Shown one piece after another: positions 10,261-29,614 of a DNA stretch of 32,125 nucleotides. This DNA comes from a virus (lineage: Duplodnaviria > Caudoviricetes). The position numbers and the translations under genes are program-made. The DNA is taken from positions 1-32,125 of IMG/VR virus record IMGVR_UViG_3300046103_001526. One strand, given 5' to 3'. Position 1 is the first letter of the stretch; every line of letters starts with the position of its first letter. The notes under the pieces were generated by a model. The model saw only the letters and a program-made list of their open reading frames with translations. It did not search any database and was not told where the DNA came from.

Positions 10261-10295
10261 AAGAGGCTTCAAAAAAAGAAGCCTCTTTTTTTTTT
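10261..10295 (+). terminator. rho-independent terminator
   Basis: AAGAGGCTTC-aaaaaaa-GAAGCCTCTT perfect 10-bp stem running into a T tract. Confidence 0.9.
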
Positions 10296-18535: not shown

Positions 18536-18946
18536 ATGAAATTTACTGTAAGAAAATTAAATAAAACAGATTACCAAGATATACTAGTTAAATGGTGGAG
18601 TGATTGGAGATGGACAGCACCTCCAAAAGACTTTTTACCAGACGATGGGGAAGGTGGTTTTATTGTGTATGATGGAGATACTCCTGTATGTGCAGGTTAT
18701 ATTTATTTAACAAATTCTAAGGTAGGTTGGTGTGATTGGATTATATCTAATTTCGAATACAAAAACAAAAAAAATCGCAAAGAGGCTTTAGTTGAATTAA
18801 TTGGAGTTTTAACAAATACTCTTAAATTAGCCAAATGTAAATACTCTTATGCATTGATAAAATCTAACTCATTAATAGAGCATTATAAAAAGAATGGTTA
18901 TATTGAAGGAGATAGTTACAATAAAGAAATGATAAAAGGATTATAA
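18536..18946 (+). CDS. GNAT-fold (acetyltransferase-like) protein preceding ejection genes
   Basis: VRKL...DY; GFIVYDGDTPVCAG; LIEHYKKNGY C-terminal GNAT-like motif. Position matches GNAT-like genes ahead of podovirus internal virion genes. Confidence 0.6.
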   Translation: MKFTVRKLNKTDYQDILVKWWSDWRWTAPPKDFLPDDGEGGFIVYDGDTPVCAGYIYLTNSKVGWCDWIISNFEYKNKKNRKEALVELIGVLTNTLKLAKCKYSYALIKSNSLIEHYKKNGYIEGDSYNKEMIKGL

Positions 18947-18947
18947 T

Positions 18948-19898
18948 ATGGCAGCATTTACAACAATAGCAGCAGCAACAGTATCAATAGGTGGTTCTGT
19001 AGCAAAAGGAATATTAGCTGGAGATGCAGCAACAGATGCAGCTAGGCAAGCAGGAAGACTTAATCTTGAAAAAGATAGGTTAGAGAAAGAGGCTGTAGCT
19101 GATTTAGAGCAAAATTTTTACGATGCACTAAGAGCTAACACAGATATATACGACAAGCAACTTCAGACAGGTAATGCAATGGGTGCTCAAATTTTAGAAG
19201 CAGTTCAAGAAGGAGACCAAAGAGGAGTAGCTGCGGGAGCAGGAAAAGTTAAACAAGTTCAAGACGCTACTTTAGGCGCTACGGCAGATAAATTTGCAGC
19301 TGAAAAATCAGAGATAGATAAACTAAAGGCAGCAGCAGGAGAAGCTTCCGCTGAAGAAATAGCAGCACTAAAAGATGACAGAGCAGCAGCAGCAGGAGTG
19401 CAAGCAGATGCATTAACTCAACAGGCATCTGATTTAAGTGGACAAGCAACAGGATCTTTTATAGATGCAGGAGTCTCAGCCTTAGGGGTAGCAGCAAATC
19501 TTATGGGTAAAAATGCCATGGGTAAAGCAGCTCAAAAGCTAGTAGACTCAGGTAAATACTCAACTCTTTCTGAAGCAACAAAATCTTTAGGTGGTCTAGA
19601 TAACAAAGCATTAAGAGCAATTGCCAAAGGTGGTGAATTTATTCCAAAGGCAGATTCAATAGTAGCCCCAGTAACGACAGTAGACCCAGCTGCTACAACA
19701 GACTATACATATAATACACCTACAATGGACGCAGATTTACCAGAAGGTTTTGGAAACCCAATATTATCTCCGCAATTTTCAAACCAAATTGATAATACCT
19801 TTTTAGGTGGATTTGGAGAAAAAATAAAATCAATAGGTTCAGATGTAAAAGATACGAGCTTAGATTTTTTAAATAAACTTAAAAATTATTTTAAATAA
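18948..19898 (+). CDS. putative ejection/internal virion protein 1
   Basis: Ala/Gly-rich hydrophobic N-terminus, coiled-coil middle, second hydrophobic patch (FIDAGVSALGVAANLMG). Confidence 0.6.
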   Translation: MAAFTTIAAATVSIGGSVAKGILAGDAATDAARQAGRLNLEKDRLEKEAVADLEQNFYDALRANTDIYDKQLQTGNAMGAQILEAVQEGDQRGVAAGAGKVKQVQDATLGATADKFAAEKSEIDKLKAAAGEASAEEIAALKDDRAAAAGVQADALTQQASDLSGQATGSFIDAGVSALGVAANLMGKNAMGKAAQKLVDSGKYSTLSEATKSLGGLDNKALRAIAKGGEFIPKADSIVAPVTTVDPAATTDYTYNTPTMDADLPEGFGNPILSPQFSNQIDNTFLGGFGEKIKSIGSDVKDTSLDFLNKLKNYFK

Positions 19899-21856
19899 TG
19901 GCAGGTAACGCATTAACAGCAGCAATGTTTTCTGTAGGGAAAGGGAACACAGGAGTAGGAAAACCAACAACAACTTTATCAGCAATTGATAAAGGAATAA
20001 CAGATGTTGGAACATGGGCAAGCGGTATAGAAGCTGAGAAACAAAAACTAAAAACAGATACTGCTAAAAAATATAGAGAAGCGGAGTTAAAAGCATATGA
20101 GAATATGCCTTCTAATGAAACGGAAAAAGCTAATATGATTAAAGGTTTGGCTTCTTACAAAGACCAACTCTATATGAATATGAAACTGGTTCAAAATGGA
20201 AACATTGACTCTAAAGATAATTTAATTTTTCAAGAAAACGGAAAGCAATCTTTTGACATATTATCTCAAGTAATTAAAAATTATGGTGAAGAAAGAGATT
20301 TAACCATGAAAAGAGCTAAGGGTTATACTGATAAAGATGGAACAGTAGTTCCTCCTACAGCAGGTGGCGTAGAAGCTGCCTTACAAGATCTTCAGTCAAG
20401 ACTAGGAAATCCTCAGTTCAGCGAAATTACTTTTGATGAAAAAGGTATGGGTGGAGTTACATTTTTTGAAACTGAAATTGATGAAGAAACTGATACTAGA
20501 GTTATAAAAAGAGATTCAAAAGGAGAACCTATTATTCAAAAAGGAATGGGTAGTCTAAGTGTTTTAGCTTTTAATAAAGGTAGAAATCAAAGAGCTGAGA
20601 GAGTTTATTTAGATAAAGCAGCTCAAGGCTTTATAGGTGAAGAAACAGCTTTAGGTCAAGCCTATCAGATAATGGAAGGGATTAATAAAGGAATGGTTGG
20701 TAATGTTACAGATGACCAAAGACAAAAATCAAGAAATCAATTAAACCAATTATTAGACCAAGCCGCAAGTACAATTACTTCTAGTAATGATAGTGTATCT
20801 AGTATTTTATCAGATAACGGCCCTTTAGAAGAAAGAAGTACACCTATTAACTCAATTCAAGCAGAAGAGTTAAAGTCTTCAGGAGTTAATTTGGATGAAC
20901 AAATTAGCTATAGTTATATTGATTCTACTGGAAAAACTCAAACAGGACAAAAAAGTAAATACATTATTCAGAAGGTTAGTCAAAACAATCAGATTGTATC
21001 TGTTTTAAGTGCTGAAGATAAGCAGGCTGCTGTAAATATGGCAAAAAGTCAATTATACTCTCAACTAGGTAGAAAAGTAGATGCTGGTACAGCGGTTAAA
21101 ACATTTGACCCAAATAGTGCATCAAGTAGGGCAGGTAATAAAATAGACAGAGAGAACCAAGGGACAGTCGACCTTATAGACCAAGCCGCTACAGGTAACA
21201 AAAATAGTTTGGATGCTTTGGTCGCTGAAAACAGCAACGTGGTATCAGCTTACGATATTTCAGGGACAGAAGGTAATCTAATGTTATCATTTATAGACAT
21301 GGATGGAAATACTCTTGCGCCAATTCCATTAAGCGGTTTAGGTAAAGATGCAGGTAAGCAAATTGCAGCACAGCTACAATTAAAAGCGCAAATATATAAC
21401 GATAAATCTACTCTAAAAAAGGAAAAAGCTACAGGTAAAATAGGTAATTATCAAACTGTAACTAAAGACTACAAGGGACTCGGTAATCTTGATTTAGGAG
21501 TTACAGAAGTAGGTGGTATAAAAAGAGCAGGAACTGCAGCAGAATTATTTGCAGAAACTATTAAAGATGACCCTGACGAAGATGAAGTTACTGGCGTAGC
21601 AAATACTATAATACAAAAGGCTATAAAAGAATATGGCTTAGATAGTAATATAAACGTATCGTTTAAAGAAACAAAGTTTGGGTATAAGGACAGATACGTA
21701 ATTACAGTAGATGGTGTAGATTACGAAAGCCCAGCAGCTTCATCTAGTGATAATCATGTATGGCTTCAAAAGAACATGGATAAAGTATTAAGAGGAGAAA
21801 AACCTAGTGGTAATGAAGCAAAGGTAAAAACAGACCAATTTGGAAACAAAATATAA
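19898..21856 (+). CDS. putative ejection/internal virion protein 2
   Basis: 652 aa, TAATG coupling to the previous gene; synteny. Confidence 0.55.
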   Translation: MAGNALTAAMFSVGKGNTGVGKPTTTLSAIDKGITDVGTWASGIEAEKQKLKTDTAKKYREAELKAYENMPSNETEKANMIKGLASYKDQLYMNMKLVQNGNIDSKDNLIFQENGKQSFDILSQVIKNYGEERDLTMKRAKGYTDKDGTVVPPTAGGVEAALQDLQSRLGNPQFSEITFDEKGMGGVTFFETEIDEETDTRVIKRDSKGEPIIQKGMGSLSVLAFNKGRNQRAERVYLDKAAQGFIGEETALGQAYQIMEGINKGMVGNVTDDQRQKSRNQLNQLLDQAASTITSSNDSVSSILSDNGPLEERSTPINSIQAEELKSSGVNLDEQISYSYIDSTGKTQTGQKSKYIIQKVSQNNQIVSVLSAEDKQAAVNMAKSQLYSQLGRKVDAGTAVKTFDPNSASSRAGNKIDRENQGTVDLIDQAATGNKNSLDALVAENSNVVSAYDISGTEGNLMLSFIDMDGNTLAPIPLSGLGKDAGKQIAAQLQLKAQIYNDKSTLKKEKATGKIGNYQTVTKDYKGLGNLDLGVTEVGGIKRAGTAAELFAETIKDDPDEDEVTGVANTIIQKAIKEYGLDSNINVSFKETKFGYKDRYVITVDGVDYESPAASSSDNHVWLQKNMDKVLRGEKPSGNEAKVKTDQFGNKI

Positions 21857-21865
21857 TAAAAATAA

Positions 21866-24800
21866 ATGGATAAATTAAAAGCTCTTTACGAAAGCTATAT
21901 TGAAAAAGGATTGTTAAGTAGTGAAACTACTTTTGAGCAGTTTTCTTCAGCAAGTTCAGATATACAAGATGGATTATATAATCAAGGTGTTGAAAATAAA
22001 ATAATAAGTTCTTCAACAGATGTTAATACATTTAAATCTGCTTGGGCTGAAAAAAAAAATCCAATCGTTACTCCTTCAGATGGGGAAGAGGTTCTTACGG
22101 AATCTACTACCGAAACAGAAGTACAAGATGGTGTTTCGGATTCTTTAGAAGTAAACGAAGTAGTTGAAGAGGGTGTAATTAACGAATCTCAATTAAACTT
22201 TGGAGACCAAACAGGCCCTATTGTAGAAGAAAAAGAAGAAGTTCTTATACCTGATGCTCCTAATAGAAAAGGTGTATTAGAAAATAAAGATGGTTCTGTA
22301 TCTACACATAAAATGAGAACAGAAACTGATGGCCAAGGTAATTGGTTTTCTTTTCCTACAATATTTCAAAATGAAGATGGAAGTTTTGTTGACATGTCTG
22401 AACAGGCGGAACAGGATTGGGAGTCCGTATATAAAGAAGCAAAAAAAAGAGGAGAAGTTGTTGATTTTTTAAAAGATAAAGAATCGGCAATTGCTTATGG
22501 AGAAGGTTCTTGGAAAGAAAGATACAATTCTAAAAAAAACTTATTAAAAAAAGACTTTGAGTTATTATTAGAAAAGGTAAATAACCCCAATAGAGAAAAA
22601 GCTCCAGATATAAATACAGGAGGAGGTATTACAATGGGAATGAGTATGCCTGGTGTAGTTCTTGATTTAGATGTAGATGAAGAATTAAGATTAAAAATAG
22701 AATCAGACCCTAATATTCAAAAAGCATTATCTGTAGGATACATAAAAAAATCAGATGTAACAAAAGCATTAAAAGGAGACGTAAAATCTATAGAAAAACT
22801 TCAAGAACTTTCAGTGAAATCTATTGAAGATAACACTTTAAAACTACAGAGTGACGAACTTAAACCTTATGATGTTTATTCAGAAACACAAAATTATATT
22901 GAAACAAAAGAGGAAAAAGCAATAAAACAAAACGCTGTAAATGCAGTTAATGCTTTTGATACAGAAACAAAAACTCTTTTAGATTCAAATCCGAATGCTA
23001 CTGAAGAAGAAATTCAATCTATATTTAACAGAGAAGGAGCTCCGACAGAAGAGCAGTATGAGATTGCAGAAAATTCTGATTATCAACAAACAGGTTTTGA
23101 GGATGAAGATCTTGGTAGAATGTATAACCAAGAATCTCTTAAAAAATTATCAGATAAAAACGATAAGTTTAGTATAGCTGGTTTTAATGGTTACTTAAAT
23201 AAAAAAGGATTTAAAGAAAGATATAATCAGTTACTTGAAGATGAAACTATTGCTGAAGATGGTACAAGTTACGATTACACAGGTAATTATAATCCAACAT
23301 TAGCAGCAGAAAAACTTAAGTATGATTATTTAAAAAATTATCTTGCTGAAGCTGACATGCAAAGAATCGAAAAAGAAGTTTTAGATTATAAGATAGCAAA
23401 CAATGGTAAGAATCCATTTTTACATGGTGATACTGATAAGATAAACCTAAAACCTTCAGTTAGTACAGAAGACCTTGGTGAATATATGGGTGAGGAATTT
23501 AAAAGCCTTGCAGCTGTTGTAAAAAAACAAAAACTAGAAACCAAAGAAAACTATCAGACAGAAATTGAAGGAGGTTCAGGAGGAAGTAATTCTCAATGGA
23601 TTTTTGATATGGGGTCTCAAGGAGGTCGCTCTATAGATAATAGGGCAAATAGTTTTGCGGAGGGAGCTTATGGATGGGTAGGAATGGATTCTTTTTCTGA
23701 TGAGATTCAAATGAATCAAGCTGAAACAGAACTTAATAGAGATGATATGCTTAGGTACACATATGCAAGTGGTAGAAGTGCTTTTGCTAATGGTAGAGAA
23801 TATCTAATTGATGATAGAGGAGAGATATATGATTTAGATTTAAAGATAAGAGTTAGTAGTGTTTTAGAACCTGAACAGATAAAAGAAATAAAAAAACAAG
23901 TACAGATAAATGGAGTTAAAACAAGTAGTTTTAGTGGGACAGGTGCAGCGGTAACAACAGCAGGTGTGGCTTCTGATATGCTGCTTCAGATAGCTCTTAC
24001 TAGAGGTGTGGGAATGGCGGGACAAACTATTAAAGGTATAGCTGCTGCTTCTAAATATAAACAAGGTAGAAGTATAATAAGTTTATTAGAAAAAGTACCT
24101 ATGAAGGCTTCAACAGCATCAGCTATGATTGCTCAGGGAACTTTAATGGGAACTTCATTGTCTTCAGATGTAAGAAAACAAGCTTTAGCTGCAGGAATGT
24201 CAAATGAAGAGGCAAATGAATTAGCATCAAGTGCAGGTATGCAGGGTTATGCCCTAGGAGTTATAACAGCCCCTATATCTACTCAAAAGATTGCTATGGA
24301 TAAAATCTTTGGAACAAAAGTAAAAGAAAAACTTATCCAAAAAACTATAGATACATATGCCAGAGGAGCAGGTATTGAAGCTTCTAAAAATATTTTCAAA
24401 AAAGGGTTAGATGGTATAATAAGAACTGTACCTGTATACTTTAAAGAAGGTGCTAAGGAGTTTGTTCAAGAAAATATTCAACAAGCAGGACAGGCTTATG
24501 TTATTGGTTCTGATATAAATGAGCAAGCAGGTCAAGAAATAATGAAGGATACCATTAGTATGGATGACTTTATGAATACCTCTATAATATCTTTAACAGC
24601 TGGTATGTTAATGCCTTTTGCAGGAGATGTGCAAACAGGAGCGGTTAGAGCTTATAAAATGAGAGGTAAAGGTTTTCAGGCTGTAGACCAAATGAAATCA
24701 TTGGCTTTAATGGCTAATGATTCAGATAAAACAAAACAACTTTTAGATTCACAAGTTAAGAAAGGAGTATACACGCAAGAGCAAGTGGATAATGTAATGG

Positions 24801-27800
24801 CTGATGTAGATATATACAGAAGCACAATAAATGGTATGCCTCCAAACTTAAGCGCAGAGACATCTTTATTGGTTATGAGTGACTTAGCTGAGATAAAAAA
24901 ACTTGAAGCACAGAAAGCCTCACAAGCCCCTTCTTTTGCATATAGAAATGATGCAAAAATACAGCAATTAAAAAATAGAATAATTAAGAACAGTAATTTT
25001 GATTTTGTAGATAACAAATCAAAACAAAAGTTAATGGATGAAGCAGCTAAAGAATTAGTTGCTGAAAAAGAATCTAGTGGTGAAAAAAACTATTCTATAG
25101 ATAACTCTCAAATTAGAGCTAAAGCTGTAGAGAACTTTAATAAGTTATCACCAGAAGAAATGCAGGCGATAGCTTTTCCAGACCAAATAAAAGAAACAGA
25201 AACTAAAACAGATAAAGATGCCATTCAAGAGCCAAGCACAGAGGAGCAAGTGTTACCAAATGAAGAAACAAGCGGAGTCGATGGGGCAATCACCGAAGTG
25301 GGACTGCAACAAGTGGGAGAAGGAGTCGTTGAGTCAGACACTACCCAAGAGGTTGAAACCGAGAACGTACAAGAAACTACCGACAAAGCTAGCGACACGA
25401 CTACGGAGACAGATACTGAACAGTTAGCGGATACCCCACAAGTATTTGGGGACAATCCTCTTACTTCTATAGAAGTGTCAGAAAATTATAATGATATAGG
25501 TAAACAGAGAAGAGATAAACTTAGGGTTATCGCTCAAATGGAGCTTAATAATGAAATAACTACTGAGGAACAATTAGATCTTAGAGAGGAGTCTTTTAGG
25601 AATATGAAAAAAGCTACAGAATCTTTTAAATCTAAAACAAAAACTACGCAGACAGATACTACTTCTGAAACAGAAGTGATGAGTGTGAACAAGGATAATA
25701 AGATTGAATCATTTGCTAATAGATTAGTAGATGGTGAATCTACTCAGGAGTTTGGTGATGAAGCTCAACAGTTTTATGCGGAGAATCAATCAGATATAGA
25801 TGAGTTAGTTACACAGAAAAGAAAAGATGTTCCTAAGAATGAATCTAAAACAAGAAGACTAGCTACCAAGATAGCTAATGGGGATACTAATTTTTCTAAT
25901 GAACAAATAGATTTATACGCTTCAAATGAAGCAGATGTAAAAGCTGAGGTAGAATCTATTTCTAAGACCAACAGTCAAACTGTAACAGAAGATACTTATA
26001 AGAGTATTTTAAAATCTGTAAAGAGTACAACTAGAACTGACAAAGCAAAGCAGGAGGGAGAAAATGCTCAACGTAAAAGATTTTGGAAATCTTGGAATAA
26101 ATCAGCAAGACTTGCAAAAAAAGATTTAAAGACTAAAAGAAAAGAACTTAATGACCAAATTAAGACTTACGCTAAAGGTAAGAAAGGAACTATTACTGCT
26201 GCACAAACTAGAGCAGTTGTAAACAAAGTTAATAGTGTAAACCTTGACAATGAATTAGCTGTACAAGAATTAATAGATTACTCAGAGAAAGTTTTTAATA
26301 ATGCTGATTTTGCAGTTAAAGAACAATTAGCTATAAAGCTTAATAAACAAGTTACCACAAGATTAAATAAAGGTAACTATGGTTTAAGTCCAGATATTGT
26401 ATCAAGATTGACTACTATTTTAAATACACCAATTAAACAATTGACTAGTGAGAATATAGATTCTTACAATGATTTTTTAAGTAATCTTAAAAAACAAAAA
26501 GAAAACGTAAGAGTTGATGAACAGTTGGTAATAGACTCTCAGAATATGGCTGATGCTTTATATGTTGAAGGTAACCAGTACGTAGATGAAGAGGTTGAAA
26601 CTAAAAAAACTAAAACTTTAAAAAGTGTAGTTGATAAAATAATTAATGAAGATGTAGATGGCGAAACTTTAATTTCAGAGGATTCTAAGTTTATTGAAAA
26701 CGATTTAGATAAATTAGATTCATTTACATTACAAACTCTTATTGATAAAATTAATAATGCAGAGACTGATGAAAACCAAGAACTTGTACAGGCTGCTAAT
26801 GATTTTGCAGAGAATAGACAAAAGGCTTTAACACGAATAAAGTCTAGGTCTAAGGGAATAAGTTTAAAAAGTTTAGATAATACAACTAAAGAGGCAGGAG
26901 ATGTAGATGTGTTTAAGAATATTAAAGATAGTGACTTGATTGGGTTAACAGGTAAGCAATTAGACCTATTAGAAATAACACTTGAAAATATTAACGATGG
27001 ACATTACACTCACGCTGCAAATAAACTTGGACAGTCTGTAAATAGTAGGGCTTATAATATGAGACCAATGATTGCTAAGTATGGTAAATTAAAAAATAAA
27101 ATAGGTATGTTTAGAGGTAGGGCAGCTGCTTCTTTAAAATCTACATTAAAAGGTTCTAAATCTACACCATCTTTAGAAATTGCTAGAAGTAATCCATTAT
27201 CTGTAATAGATAATGCTTTTGGTAACTTTGATAATAATACAATTCGAAACAATTCTTTTGAACCAACTGCTACAAAATATTCTGCATTTAAAACCTTTAC
27301 AGGAAGACTTACAGATAAGCTTGATGCTGTAGAAAAAATAATAGCTCCTACATTAAAAGAAGGAACTAATCCAGCTATAACAAGAAGGTTTGAAATAACA
27401 ACATATTTATTAGCAAAAGAATATGAGTCTAATAAAGGTAACGATGGTGTTGCAGAAGCAAATGCATTTATAGATAAGACAATAGAAAAATTTAATGATG
27501 TAAATTCTGACAGCAACTACACTCAAGCTGATATAGATATACTACTTGCTATTAAGAAAAAGTATAGTGACAATGGTGTAATTACAAGTAAGAAAATGGA
27601 TGAGTCTTTATCTCCAAAAGTAAAGAAAGCTATAAAACTATTAGAAGAAGTTTATGGTGCTTTAGGAGATAAGCAAGCGTATGCTACAAGTATTGTTAGA
27701 GGTAATAAATTAGACTTACTAAACAATTATGTTCATCATAAGGTAGATGCAGCAAACGATAAAGATGATTCACAGTTATTAGCACAGAAAACTTATTTTG

Positions 27801-29614
27801 CGCCAAGCACAAGCACCGAATCTAAAACATCTATAGGCAGAACTAAAGGAGCAAAAGCAATTGACTTTGATCCTGTTTCTACTGCTCTTAGAGGATTAAG
27901 AGCAACCGGTTTAGATTTCTTTTTAACTAATGAAATTCAAACATCTAGAAAAGCCTTTGGTCAATTAACAAAAATAAGTCAAGAAAATAATGCATCAGAG
28001 GATGTAATAGAAGCTACACAATCTTTAAGTAGAGTATACAATGAATCTATTGAGAATGTTCTTGCTAGTAATTTCAGTACAGATGTTATTGGTGGTAAGT
28101 ATTTTGATATGGCTAAAAGAGTTGGTTACTATAGTACGTTAGCATCTGTCCCTAGATCTGTTGCGGAATTAGGAAGTAACTTAACGTTTGGATTATTAGA
28201 TTCCCCACTTCAGTTAATGCAGGGGATGACTAAATACGGTAATCTATCATTAATGCAAAACGGATTATCATTTGCCGAAAACGTAGGTTCAACTACTGTT
28301 AGTAAAAATTGGGGTTCAGAAATACTAGGAGGTTCTAAGGCAGAACAAGGAGGAGTAGTCAGAAATAAAAAGCCTGCAAAGAGAGCATCAAACAGTAATC
28401 TTAAAAGCTCTCTTCAGTATGGTAAAAGAGCTACGGATACTTTTGGAAAAGGAGTTGAGTTATTAGCAGACACCTTATTAAGTACTCCTGATAAAATGAT
28501 TTCAAGACCTTTATTTTTTGGTACGTTTGCTAAAACATTCAAACAGGAAACTGGTCAAGACATGGATGTTGATAAGATATCAAATAATGACCAAGAGTAT
28601 ATGACTAAGTATGCTGATGCTATCAAGGCTGCTAAAATTGCTGCTGATAAGAAAGTGACTCAAGCTGCTACATCTAATGACCCATTTAGTGGGGTATTGA
28701 AAAATCAACTTTCAGATACAGATAATGGTTTCATGATATATTACAAAACAATAAACTCATACATGTCTAGATTCTCTATTAATGAATTTGCTACAGCAAG
28801 ACAAGCAGTAGCTTCTATGATTGGACAGGGAGAGGAAAGTGCTATTAAAGGTGGAGCAAAACTTGCAGGAGTTATGACACGAATGAGTCTGTATGTTGTA
28901 ATGTATAAGGCATTTGCTTCTATGTTTAATGGTATGTTAGGATTAGATGATGAAGACGAAACAGACTATAAAGAGTTAGGTATAAGACAATTAGCAGGGG
29001 CAGGTGTTTCTTTAATAACAAGAGGAGCTTCAGGTAACGTGCCTATGATTCCTATAAATTACGGTATAGAGTTATTAAATGAAGAGTATGGAGAACAGCT
29101 TGGGTTGTGGTCAGATAAAGATGGAAAAGGTTATAATTCTTTCAAGCATTCAATTATTTTTAGTGTAATAAACCAACAAAGTTTAGAGAGTAAAGGATTT
29201 TTTAAATCTGCTGCAAGTGTTTTAGCAGGGCCTCTTAGTCCTCAAGTAATGGCCGCAGGTCGAATAGCTGAATTATTAATTGCTATGAAGGCTGGAGGTA
29301 CTGCAGGAGATAAAGCAGCTAAGAAGTTCTTTTCAGAAAGAACTGCAATAGAAGCAGCAGGTATTGTAGGGGCAATGCCTTTTTACAAAGACCTTAGAAG
29401 ATATTTTATGGCTGAAGATTGGTCTAAGATAAAAGAAGCAAAAGCAGCAAATGAATCTGATAAAGGACTTACTTATGAAGAACTTAAAATTTTTAATCCA
29501 AGAGCCGCAGAGAAACTTAAGAGAGACAAAAAATCAGCCAATAAAAAATACAAATCTACAAGTGCATACCGAAAAGTAAAAGCAATGGAAGACAAACTAA
29601 AAAAGTTTAAATAG
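21866..29614 (+). CDS. giant putative ejection/DNA-transfer protein (2582 aa)
   Basis: Last gene of the virion operon; mostly helical with acidic linkers, Gly/Ala-rich hydrophobic segments and an EFVQENIQQ motif; no recognisable catalytic motif. Confidence 0.65.
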   Translation: MDKLKALYESYIEKGLLSSETTFEQFSSASSDIQDGLYNQGVENKIISSSTDVNTFKSAWAEKKNPIVTPSDGEEVLTESTTETEVQDGVSDSLEVNEVVEEGVINESQLNFGDQTGPIVEEKEEVLIPDAPNRKGVLENKDGSVSTHKMRTETDGQGNWFSFPTIFQNEDGSFVDMSEQAEQDWESVYKEAKKRGEVVDFLKDKESAIAYGEGSWKERYNSKKNLLKKDFELLLEKVNNPNREKAPDINTGGGITMGMSMPGVVLDLDVDEELRLKIESDPNIQKALSVGYIKKSDVTKALKGDVKSIEKLQELSVKSIEDNTLKLQSDELKPYDVYSETQNYIETKEEKAIKQNAVNAVNAFDTETKTLLDSNPNATEEEIQSIFNREGAPTEEQYEIAENSDYQQTGFEDEDLGRMYNQESLKKLSDKNDKFSIAGFNGYLNKKGFKERYNQLLEDETIAEDGTSYDYTGNYNPTLAAEKLKYDYLKNYLAEADMQRIEKEVLDYKIANNGKNPFLHGDTDKINLKPSVSTEDLGEYMGEEFKSLAAVVKKQKLETKENYQTEIEGGSGGSNSQWIFDMGSQGGRSIDNRANSFAEGAYGWVGMDSFSDEIQMNQAETELNRDDMLRYTYASGRSAFANGREYLIDDRGEIYDLDLKIRVSSVLEPEQIKEIKKQVQINGVKTSSFSGTGAAVTTAGVASDMLLQIALTRGVGMAGQTIKGIAAASKYKQGRSIISLLEKVPMKASTASAMIAQGTLMGTSLSSDVRKQALAAGMSNEEANELASSAGMQGYALGVITAPISTQKIAMDKIFGTKVKEKLIQKTIDTYARGAGIEASKNIFKKGLDGIIRTVPVYFKEGAKEFVQENIQQAGQAYVIGSDINEQAGQEIMKDTISMDDFMNTSIISLTAGMLMPFAGDVQTGAVRAYKMRGKGFQAVDQMKSLALMANDSDKTKQLLDSQVKKGVYTQEQVDNVMADVDIYRSTINGMPPNLSAETSLLVMSDLAEIKKLEAQKASQAPSFAYRNDAKIQQLKNRIIKNSNFDFVDNKSKQKLMDEAAKELVAEKESSGEKNYSIDNSQIRAKAVENFNKLSPEEMQAIAFPDQIKETETKTDKDAIQEPSTEEQVLPNEETSGVDGAITEVGLQQVGEGVVESDTTQEVETENVQETTDKASDTTTETDTEQLADTPQVFGDNPLTSIEVSENYNDIGKQRRDKLRVIAQMELNNEITTEEQLDLREESFRNMKKATESFKSKTKTTQTDTTSETEVMSVNKDNKIESFANRLVDGESTQEFGDEAQQFYAENQSDIDELVTQKRKDVPKNESKTRRLATKIANGDTNFSNEQIDLYASNEADVKAEVESISKTNSQTVTEDTYKSILKSVKSTTRTDKAKQEGENAQRKRFWKSWNKSARLAKKDLKTKRKELNDQIKTYAKGKKGTITAAQTRAVVNKVNSVNLDNELAVQELIDYSEKVFNNADFAVKEQLAIKLNKQVTTRLNKGNYGLSPDIVSRLTTILNTPIKQLTSENIDSYNDFLSNLKKQKENVRVDEQLVIDSQNMADALYVEGNQYVDEEVETKKTKTLKSVVDKIINEDVDGETLISEDSKFIENDLDKLDSFTLQTLIDKINNAETDENQELVQAANDFAENRQKALTRIKSRSKGISLKSLDNTTKEAGDVDVFKNIKDSDLIGLTGKQLDLLEITLENINDGHYTHAANKLGQSVNSRAYNMRPMIAKYGKLKNKIGMFRGRAAASLKSTLKGSKSTPSLEIARSNPLSVIDNAFGNFDNNTIRNNSFEPTATKYSAFKTFTGRLTDKLDAVEKIIAPTLKEGTNPAITRRFEITTYLLAKEYESNKGNDGVAEANAFIDKTIEKFNDVNSDSNYTQADIDILLAIKKKYSDNGVITSKKMDESLSPKVKKAIKLLEEVYGALGDKQAYATSIVRGNKLDLLNNYVHHKVDAANDKDDSQLLAQKTYFAPSTSTESKTSIGRTKGAKAIDFDPVSTALRGLRATGLDFFLTNEIQTSRKAFGQLTKISQENNASEDVIEATQSLSRVYNESIENVLASNFSTDVIGGKYFDMAKRVGYYSTLASVPRSVAELGSNLTFGLLDSPLQLMQGMTKYGNLSLMQNGLSFAENVGSTTVSKNWGSEILGGSKAEQGGVVRNKKPAKRASNSNLKSSLQYGKRATDTFGKGVELLADTLLSTPDKMISRPLFFGTFAKTFKQETGQDMDVDKISNNDQEYMTKYADAIKAAKIAADKKVTQAATSNDPFSGVLKNQLSDTDNGFMIYYKTINSYMSRFSINEFATARQAVASMIGQGEESAIKGGAKLAGVMTRMSLYVVMYKAFASMFNGMLGLDDEDETDYKELGIRQLAGAGVSLITRGASGNVPMIPINYGIELLNEEYGEQLGLWSDKDGKGYNSFKHSIIFSVINQQSLESKGFFKSAASVLAGPLSPQVMAAGRIAELLIAMKAGGTAGDKAAKKFFSERTAIEAAGIVGAMPFYKDLRRYFMAEDWSKIKEAKAANESDKGLTYEELKIFNPRAAEKLKRDKKSANKKYKSTSAYRKVKAMEDKLKKFK
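22050..22167 (+). other. candidate slippage site (A10) and -1 frame extension of 35 aa
   Basis: A10 at 22050-22059. The -1 frame is closed by TGA at 22048-22050, then reads KKK-SNRYSFRWGRGSYGIYYRNRSTRWCFGFFRSKRSS to TGA at 22165-22167. Confidence 0.5.
25218..25427 (+). CDS. nested +1-frame small basic protein (MPFKSQAQR...) overlapping the giant gene
   Basis: ATG with A-rich leader; N-terminus and KWEKE..LPKR resemble a small phage protein family as I recall it; host-frame third positions become GC-rich across this interval. Confidence 0.6.
   Translation: MPFKSQAQRSKCYQMKKQAESMGQSPKWDCNKWEKESLSQTLPKRLKPRTYKKLPTKLATRLRRQILNS

Follow-up and report, generated by a model that had tools for sequence, protein, structure and literature searches.

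What does a phage gain from ten consecutive adenines near the start of a giant gene, directly ahead of a long open frame that the gene itself does not read? The question is raised by the IMG/VR virus record IMGVR_UViG_3300046103_001526, of which positions 1 to 32,125, a stretch of 32,125 nucleotides (nt) called 'the window' below, were analysed. The run (A10; 22050..22059, on the plus strand like every feature given below in this form) covers codons 62-65 (Glu-Lys-Lys-Asn) of a gene of 2582 amino acids (aa), the giant (21866..29614), and is the only run of ten A's in the window, the next longest being A9 at 251 and 2248; an earlier note made from the letters alone (the sequence-only reading) had singled it out as the longest seen. 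A TGA at the 5' edge of the run (22048..22050) shuts the -1 frame, which then stays open for 38 codons without Met, Asp or Glu (22051-22164) until a TGA at 22165-22167 (22051..22167 including the stop), and no ATG lies upstream in this frame in any of the 77 cassettes compared below. The blocked, startless and non-acidic frame described earlier was thus recovered in every respect. One added A gives 62 + 38 = 100 residues, in which the N-terminal 62-aa domain common to both products (21866..22051; acidic, pI 4.4, net charge -5) is followed by a basic/aromatic tail of net charge +12 in place of an acidic zero-frame linker of net charge -8, the exchange of an acidic linker for a cationic-aromatic peptide that had been foreseen. 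Judged by sequence comparison, the recoding site is real and strongly conserved, and the domain hidden behind it is under selection.

A first search used residues 1-100 of the giant as query, which contain the site, and returned A10 with an open -1 frame at 17 of 17 loci. An unbiased sample was fetched with a conserved 136-aa gene 3 kb upstream (18536..18946; PHROG 17252 by profile match), an anchor independent of the run. Among the best 80 of 104 relatives, 19 contigs stop before the site and 61 reach it (49 distinct tips on the anchor-gene tree); in all 61, exactly ten A's stand in frame at codon 41-116 of the giant, and the -1 frame is open for 35-45 codons. AAG never breaks the run in these 61 loci, whereas elsewhere it supplies 26% of Lys codons, and outside the cassette of the same loci only 7 of 282 in-frame motifs that could be written with ten A's are so written. 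Runs broken by AAG and randomly placed -1 stops, either of which the sequence-only reading had said would tell against it, were not seen: all 61 relatives keep both features. The genome contigs that reach the site agree (3/3 with A10 and an open -1 frame). With more distant phages as seeds, further cassettes came up with A11 (L147), with A9 and then G (L156) and with A10 (L170-L172), while one contig (L148) ends at codon 68 with no run up to there. A run-containing pattern scan gave 19 matches, one of which (L136) was not a cassette and was dropped. The pooled non-redundant set used for statistics comprised 77 cassettes (74 A10, 2 A11 and 1 A9), with L136 and five A9 records left out; because it was filtered on having the run and an in-frame giant, the unbiased conservation figure is 61/61. 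Long A runs were also noted in other settings: in relatives, A9-A10 runs stand just before start codons in A-rich leaders (L027 7956, L029 9186, L045 9196, L024 13388, L051 13374 and L063 8289), with their other frames shut within 3-17 codons, and the A9 at 2248-2256 of the window lies inside the terminase gene, where the -1 frame shuts after 12 codons.

An open frame may be conserved as a by-product of the protein above it, and recoding controls were used for comparison. When the zero-frame protein of the window was kept constant and its codons were drawn anew according to their use in giant genes, at least 38 open -1 codons arose in 3 of 2000 draws (p 0.0015), the 31-codon +1 frame of the window having p 0.047 in the same test; over the 77 cassettes the median recoding p was 0.006 for the -1 frame versus 0.11 for the +1 frame. 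At random positions in giant genes, -1 frames of at least 34 codons occurred in 0.9% of cases. Lengths in the 77 cassettes were 19-48 codons (standard deviation (sd) 4.8) for the -1 frame and 5-64 codons (sd 11.4, median 31) for the +1 frame; use of all three frames was considered, the +1 frame being open in the first 17 loci, and rejected on this spread and on the lack of significance over the 77.

Substitutions follow the codon structure of the -1 frame. Parsimony changes at zero-frame positions 1, 2 and 3 numbered 173/225/192 in 63 cassettes aligned in the zero frame and 208/267/210 when the same cassettes were aligned on the -1 frame, zero-frame position 2, which is the -1 wobble position, being the most variable; the control gene gave 400/216/1047, and position 3 was the maximum in all four N-domain sets. 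The exception was one of the four matching cassette subsets, in which position 3 was slightly ahead (35/46/51). Two glycines of the -1 frame are kept in 63 of 63 main-clade tails through G-ending codons, while the zero-frame residues beneath them vary: the first (22099..22101, Tyr-Gly) requires an uncommon zero-frame codon that ends in G, in most cases ACG, and the second (22138..22140, Phe-Gly-Phe) requires TCG, TTG or GTG. In giant genes, ACG makes up 6% of Thr codons, TCG 2.6% of Ser codons and TTG 11% of Leu codons, and the earlier remark that codons rare elsewhere are used under the -1 frame holds, ACG and TCG being forced by the -1 glycines. The avoidance of T-ending codons ahead of Asp and Glu also stands, with 11 such codons counted; a codon ending in T precedes the last of them alone, and there the stop arises. 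The caveat that -1 frames of acidic text are inherently Arg-rich applies to Arg (15.8% in tails versus 15.1% in background -1 frames) and does not extend to Gly (13.1 versus 4.5%) or to aromatics (25 versus 15%). Against recoded controls, the Gly excess is 4.3 versus 1.5 residues; the aromatic excess is modest across the family (8.3 versus 6.2 residues, median p 0.13), a point against the proposal set out below, with 10 versus 5.7 residues in the window tail (p 0.004). These patterns indicate that the -1 frame is under purifying selection, and because they join the 61/61 conservation to a -1 codon-position signature, the predicted isoform of about 100 aa with its 62-aa shared N-terminus is well supported as a selected product.

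The same data bear on an explanation without a second product, in which the run would code for a needed Lys-rich stretch and the open frame would be an RNA or DNA element (structure, antisense terminator or promoter). Such a view could draw on the natural richness in Arg and aromatics of the -1 frame of text rich in Asp, Glu, Ser and Thr, and on a +1 frame that is also fairly long in many cassettes. It is at odds with the absence of AAG from the run and with variation that follows -1 codons, and the elements themselves were searched for. RNAalifold on 30 cassettes gave 0 consensus pairs, and single folds were at shuffle level (z 0.37 for the window; mean z near 0 upstream and downstream over the 77 cassettes), on which RNA structure was rejected as the cause of conservation. 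A minus-strand intrinsic terminator was likewise rejected, a hairpin abutting the T run being present in 0 of 77 cassettes with no terminator match, as was a promoter at the run, none being found above chance. An element without a product is regarded as very improbable.

The putative hidden domain appears to be folded. AlphaFold2 with 43 tails predicted three antiparallel strands (residues 7-12, 15-22 and 25-31; predicted local distance difference test (pLDDT) 76.6), in which large hydrophobic side chains recur in alternation in strands 1 and 2 while basic ones occupy the ends and the turns; nine to ten tail positions hold a large hydrophobic residue in 92-100% of tails. In distant clades two to four strand-like segments are seen by sequence pattern, Elemovirus-type tails (L113 19021, L170-L172) having 46-48 residues and a fourth strand-like segment, and those of phi38:1, L112 and L156 having 19-27 residues and about two. 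No family or fold was matched: for the window tail Pfam gave none, the Atlas gave none, and the best hits were E 0.98 in the PDB, E 2.6 with Foldseek and Z 2.9 with VIA, 38 residues being too short to exclude a likeness. A homo-trimer prediction of the tail scored 0.02 and was counted neither for nor against. The N-terminal domain is predicted as two helix-loop-helix repeats (pLDDT 85) and had no significant family or fold match, the two best viral matches of its model being proteins of 1314 and 1386 aa (TM 0.75-0.77, E 0.34 and 1.4).

A profile of the tail searched against 1.84 billion proteins gave 26 matches, all of 76-127 aa and ending in the tail, of which 24 consist of N-domain, Lys run and tail. 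In two database proteins (P0021 and P0022) the tail stands behind an unusual N-part or without a Lys run, possibly in chimeric or deleted contigs. In a separate lookup, one of seven database proteins had the fused tail and three had the +1 end, and nine of ten fused-tail proteins looked up were singletons. Most simply, the fused forms are contigs with one A too many, and they were not counted as expression; because +1 versions occur too, they say no more than that the tail is found nowhere else.

Which machine would supply the missing base? Slippage of RNA polymerase is favoured over a shift of the ribosome because no conserved RNA structure was found and because the length of ten is fixed in two codon phases (Glu-Lys-Lys-Asn in 47 cassettes and x-Lys-Lys-Lys in 27), the phase changing at least five times on the tree. 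The run has the length published as the trigger of bacterial polymerase slippage (at least 9 A/T within the coding sequence), and Shigella spa13 has A10, according to the portions consulted of PMC5009743 and PMC6260861. The same isoform could be made by the ribosome through a -1 shift or sliding on A_AAA_AAA with tandem tRNA-Lys and no 3' structure. This heptamer is present inside the run in both phases, selection acts on the -1 frame only and not on the +1 frame, a sister group described below reaches a similar tail through an undoubtedly ribosomal type of signal, and some tailed phages use low-level shifts without stimulators, as described in part of PMC5009743. A ribosomal site would, however, need only seven bases and tolerate or prefer AAG, whereas ten pure A's are kept with AAG interrupting them in 0 of 61 loci, and the stem-loop or pseudoknot that canonical -1 frameshifting has 5-9 nt downstream was not found in the A10 group.

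Several observations weigh against the polymerase. According to PMC4066793, ribosomal -1 shifting at A_AAA_AAA is proven for an insertion sequence (IS) cluster when a stem-loop follows, and according to PMC6260861 poly(T) makes Escherichia coli polymerase slip more than poly(A) does. L156, with A9 then G, carries the classical ribosomal A_AAA_AAG, which equally speaks for the ribosome. Among the assembled contigs there was no transcript with an extra A, those from RNA either beginning at the run or not covering it, and transframe peptides were likewise not observed; four supplements of PMC13288928 hold no peptide strings from the gp101 N-terminus or tail, and PMC12014285 does not treat these phages. 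On balance, polymerase slippage is given a somewhat better than even chance, and production of the isoform by the ribosome, though a serious candidate, is judged unlikely.

A further explanation places the change in the DNA, the run being a hypermutable, phase-variable tract and A11 genomes in the population making the short protein. Two kinds of record could be read in this way: single public contigs that encode the fused or +1 form as ordinary ORFs (open reading frames), and five GenBank records with A9 and the giant out of frame. Among named phages, A10 stands in frame in Elemo E6-9C, phi38:1, Calle_2 and Gundel_1, and A11 in frame in MW202828. In phi13:2, phi18:3, phi19:3, phi46:3 and Panino (L115 26268, L120 7507, L121 10250, L122 8313 and L118 18750, respectively) the record has A9, the giant is out of frame from its start codon, and the gene is annotated as split or truncated. 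The four Baltivirus records among these presumably derive from 454 sequencing. Panino was sequenced on MinION only and assembled with Canu, as stated in the part seen of PMC11590407, and in a JGI contig that by eye reads like phi18:3 over this region (L174, of DNA or RNA) the run is A10 and the frame unbroken. An out-of-frame giant behind A9 was therefore rejected as the natural state, and the A9 records of Baltivirus and Panino are probably homopolymer under-calls. Phase variation is also hard to reconcile with the 61/61 consensus contigs that have A10 in frame and with two DNA runs from independent studies, in the contigs of which no indel occurs at the run; moreover, a genome fixed at A11 would lose the giant, which is probably essential. 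A DNA-level switch is thus considered a very slight possibility.

A second type of cassette bears on both the product and the machine. Four contigs reach a similar -1 tail through G_GGA_AAA instead of A10, in L180 at the start of the giant gene. L180 was found in a DNA scan for the tail motif without the run, in which 29 of 30 matches were unrelated chance and the remaining one was this cassette, and its three relatives share the heptamer and a 6-nt spacer. The heptamer cassettes with the predicted H-type pseudoknot lie at about 4096-4160 in L205-L208 (4048-4110 in L208) and at 2430-2520 in L180. In the predicted pseudoknot 13 pairs are formed in all four sequences (52 cells), with one double change in each stem; this count is weakened by resting on four sequences and by 66 of 500 shuffles reaching the same level. 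Against a profile built of A10 tails only, the tails of the heptamer contigs rank 1, 2, 3 and 8 of 2812 sequences (E 0.002-0.31), and the -1 tail of a heptamer cassette is nearly identical at its end to that of the A10 phage L112, while the giant bodies of the heptamer contigs could not be aligned with the giant of the window. It thus seems that the same kind of product is reached by two recoding devices, and the heptamer variant is an independent sign, at the sequence level, that the tail is a real product.

The cassette also seems to move. The part before the run belongs to one of about 11 unrelated N-domain types, which have changed 24 times on the 49-tip anchor-gene tree, and contigs from public runs match the window only over 22047-22215 (the run, the tail and little beyond), their flanks differing on both sides; runs with only a small share were taken as evidence of neither habitat nor expression. 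Because the N-part varies and these contigs match only from 22047, the run marks a module border, and by these alignments 22047-22215 is a recombination module. In L031, L060 and L067 the N-domain type was seen repeated again just after the linker in the giant.

What the isoform would do is the weakest part of the proposal. Host RNA polymerase would slip on A10 so that a fraction of transcripts gains one A; these would be translated into the 100-residue isoform (62-residue N-terminal domain plus 38-residue basic aromatic tail), and unslipped transcripts into the 2582-residue giant. By way of the N-terminal domain that both products have, the short isoform would associate with the giant in a set ratio; its tail, aromatic on one face and basic along the edges, would grip an anionic membrane surface (outer membrane or lipopolysaccharide (LPS)) and so anchor the ejected complex. 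We infer only tentatively that the isoform joins the giant in a fixed ratio and that the tail grips the host envelope. In phi18:3, gp123, the body of the giant and its positional counterpart, is marked in RefSeq as found by tandem mass spectrometry (MS/MS), whereas gp122, which holds the N-terminal domain, is listed as 'hypothetical' with no MS/MS note, and this argues weakly against an abundant virion isoform.

The missing annotation of N-domain peptides as detected in phi18:3 virions fits the alternative that the short isoform is no envelope-binding virion part and does its work within the infected cell. There it would serve in assembly as an adaptor or chaperone, much like lambda G/GT, or would bind DNA and help to load the giant into the procapsid. 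The net charge of +12 and the small beta-sheet would also suit a DNA or protein groove, and the tail occurs only behind such N-domains (26/26 matches being proteins of 76-127 aa that end in it). The searches showed no likeness to any known chaperone or DNA-binding family, and since clades differ in strand number, with about two to four, a single specific partner, whether a protein or a DNA sequence, is difficult to envisage. Such a role inside the cell is a possibility short of even, and a cytoplasmic adaptor, chaperone or DNA-binding function is about as likely as the envelope grip. The fullest form of the preferred proposal, which we regard as doubtful as a whole, is that Bacteroidota podoviruses carry a mobile cassette, made of a polymerase slip site (exchangeable for a heptamer-pseudoknot) and a hidden beta-sheet mini-domain, that has been attached to various unrelated targeting domains at the N-terminus and to various giant ejection proteins. 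The cassette would yield a virion pilot protein of about 100 residues engaging the host outer membrane and would be the first programmed transcriptional slippage in a tailed phage.

Among phages, the lambda tail chaperone G/GT and T7 10A/10B arise by -1 ribosomal frameshifts that set a fixed ratio of proteins sharing an N-terminus. The likeness lies in two phage morphogenesis proteins with a common N-terminus; in lambda and T7, however, the shift comes late in its gene, a short one just ahead of the tape-measure gene of a long-tailed phage in lambda and the major capsid gene in T7, and lengthens the product, whereas in the window it falls at codon 62 of 2582 and shortens it, in a podovirus-type module with no tape-measure context. 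Genes 39/40 of Alteromonas virus vB_AspP-H4/4 have a predicted -1 shift involving, as here, a podovirus internal virion protein gene (PMC5658483, from the text available), but that shift is proposed to join an endolysin ORF into a longer product in a T7-like phage, with no A10 and no short aromatic tail. Programmed transcriptional slippage is described for Thermus thermophilus dnaX (9-base run), Shigella spa13 (A10) and mxiE, and Citrobacter tssM in the passages seen of PMC6260861 and PMC5009743. The window site resembles the dnaX/spa13 type in a run of 9-10 A/T inside a gene and two proteins with one N-terminus, and dnaX in having a short and a long form; it differs in being placed in a tailed phage, in a minor product that is short with its own selected and apparently folded domain of 20-48 residues over the linker of the giant, and in a cassette that moves between unrelated N-domains and giant bodies. 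In potyvirus P3N-PIPO, polymerase slippage at GA6 (PMC5009743, in part) similarly adds one A and opens a hidden overlapping -1 frame fused to the N-terminal part of a long protein; there, an RNA virus uses its own polymerase, whereas a DNA phage would most likely rely on that of its host.

If the proposal is true, polymerase slippage is added as a recoding route, and two different recoding devices converge on one hidden product; in the literature searched, mostly without subscription papers, there was no account of this site, of polymerase slippage in these phages or of an example in a tailed phage. A small protein that lacks annotation, and whose domain belongs to no known family, is predicted for a large group of phages common in marine and fresh waters that includes the cultured models phi38:1, phi18:3, Elemo, Gundel and Calle, and since infection proteomes exist for cultured models the claim is directly testable. 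The proposal further suggests that five giant genes in GenBank/RefSeq were split by homopolymer error.

By ORF scan, the window covers 32 kb of a Bacteroidota podovirus and carries GroES, terminase, portal and virion genes; no phage RNA polymerase was named among the 20 ORFs scanned within these 32 kb. Its terminase matches only Elemovirus, Cellulophaga, Tenacibaculum and Maribacter phages and one freshwater genome (87 records), with 33-46% identity to Elemovirus, Pachyviridae and Pervagoviridae and a best match of 72.6% (MW202828), and the marine phage of the window is an uncultured relative of these. Three variable genes close the structural module, two of 316 and 652 aa (18948..21856) and, after them, the giant. 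Elemovirus, Pachyviridae and Pervagoviridae share this three-gene layout, several of the genes being annotated there as virion proteins, as well as the gene order with GroES and giant genes with the same run and a related tail; their giant bodies could not be aligned pairwise with that of the window. The designation of the giant as an ejection gene in the sequence-only reading was supported by gene position only, the giant having the podovirus ejection-protein layout as last and largest of the three-gene block ending the module; no homology was found to back it, with no Pfam match in a profile search and no BLAST likeness to the phi18:3 giant. Position makes it likely that the giant is an internal virion/ejection protein, and PHROG 32588, of unknown function, matches it over residues 1769-2570. 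The GroES-like co-chaperonin, shared with Elemovirus, Pachyviridae and Pervagoviridae, lies at 636-1202, before the terminase. Between two structural genes, at 10271-10295, an A7 run, a short hairpin and a T10 run together resemble a bidirectional terminator.

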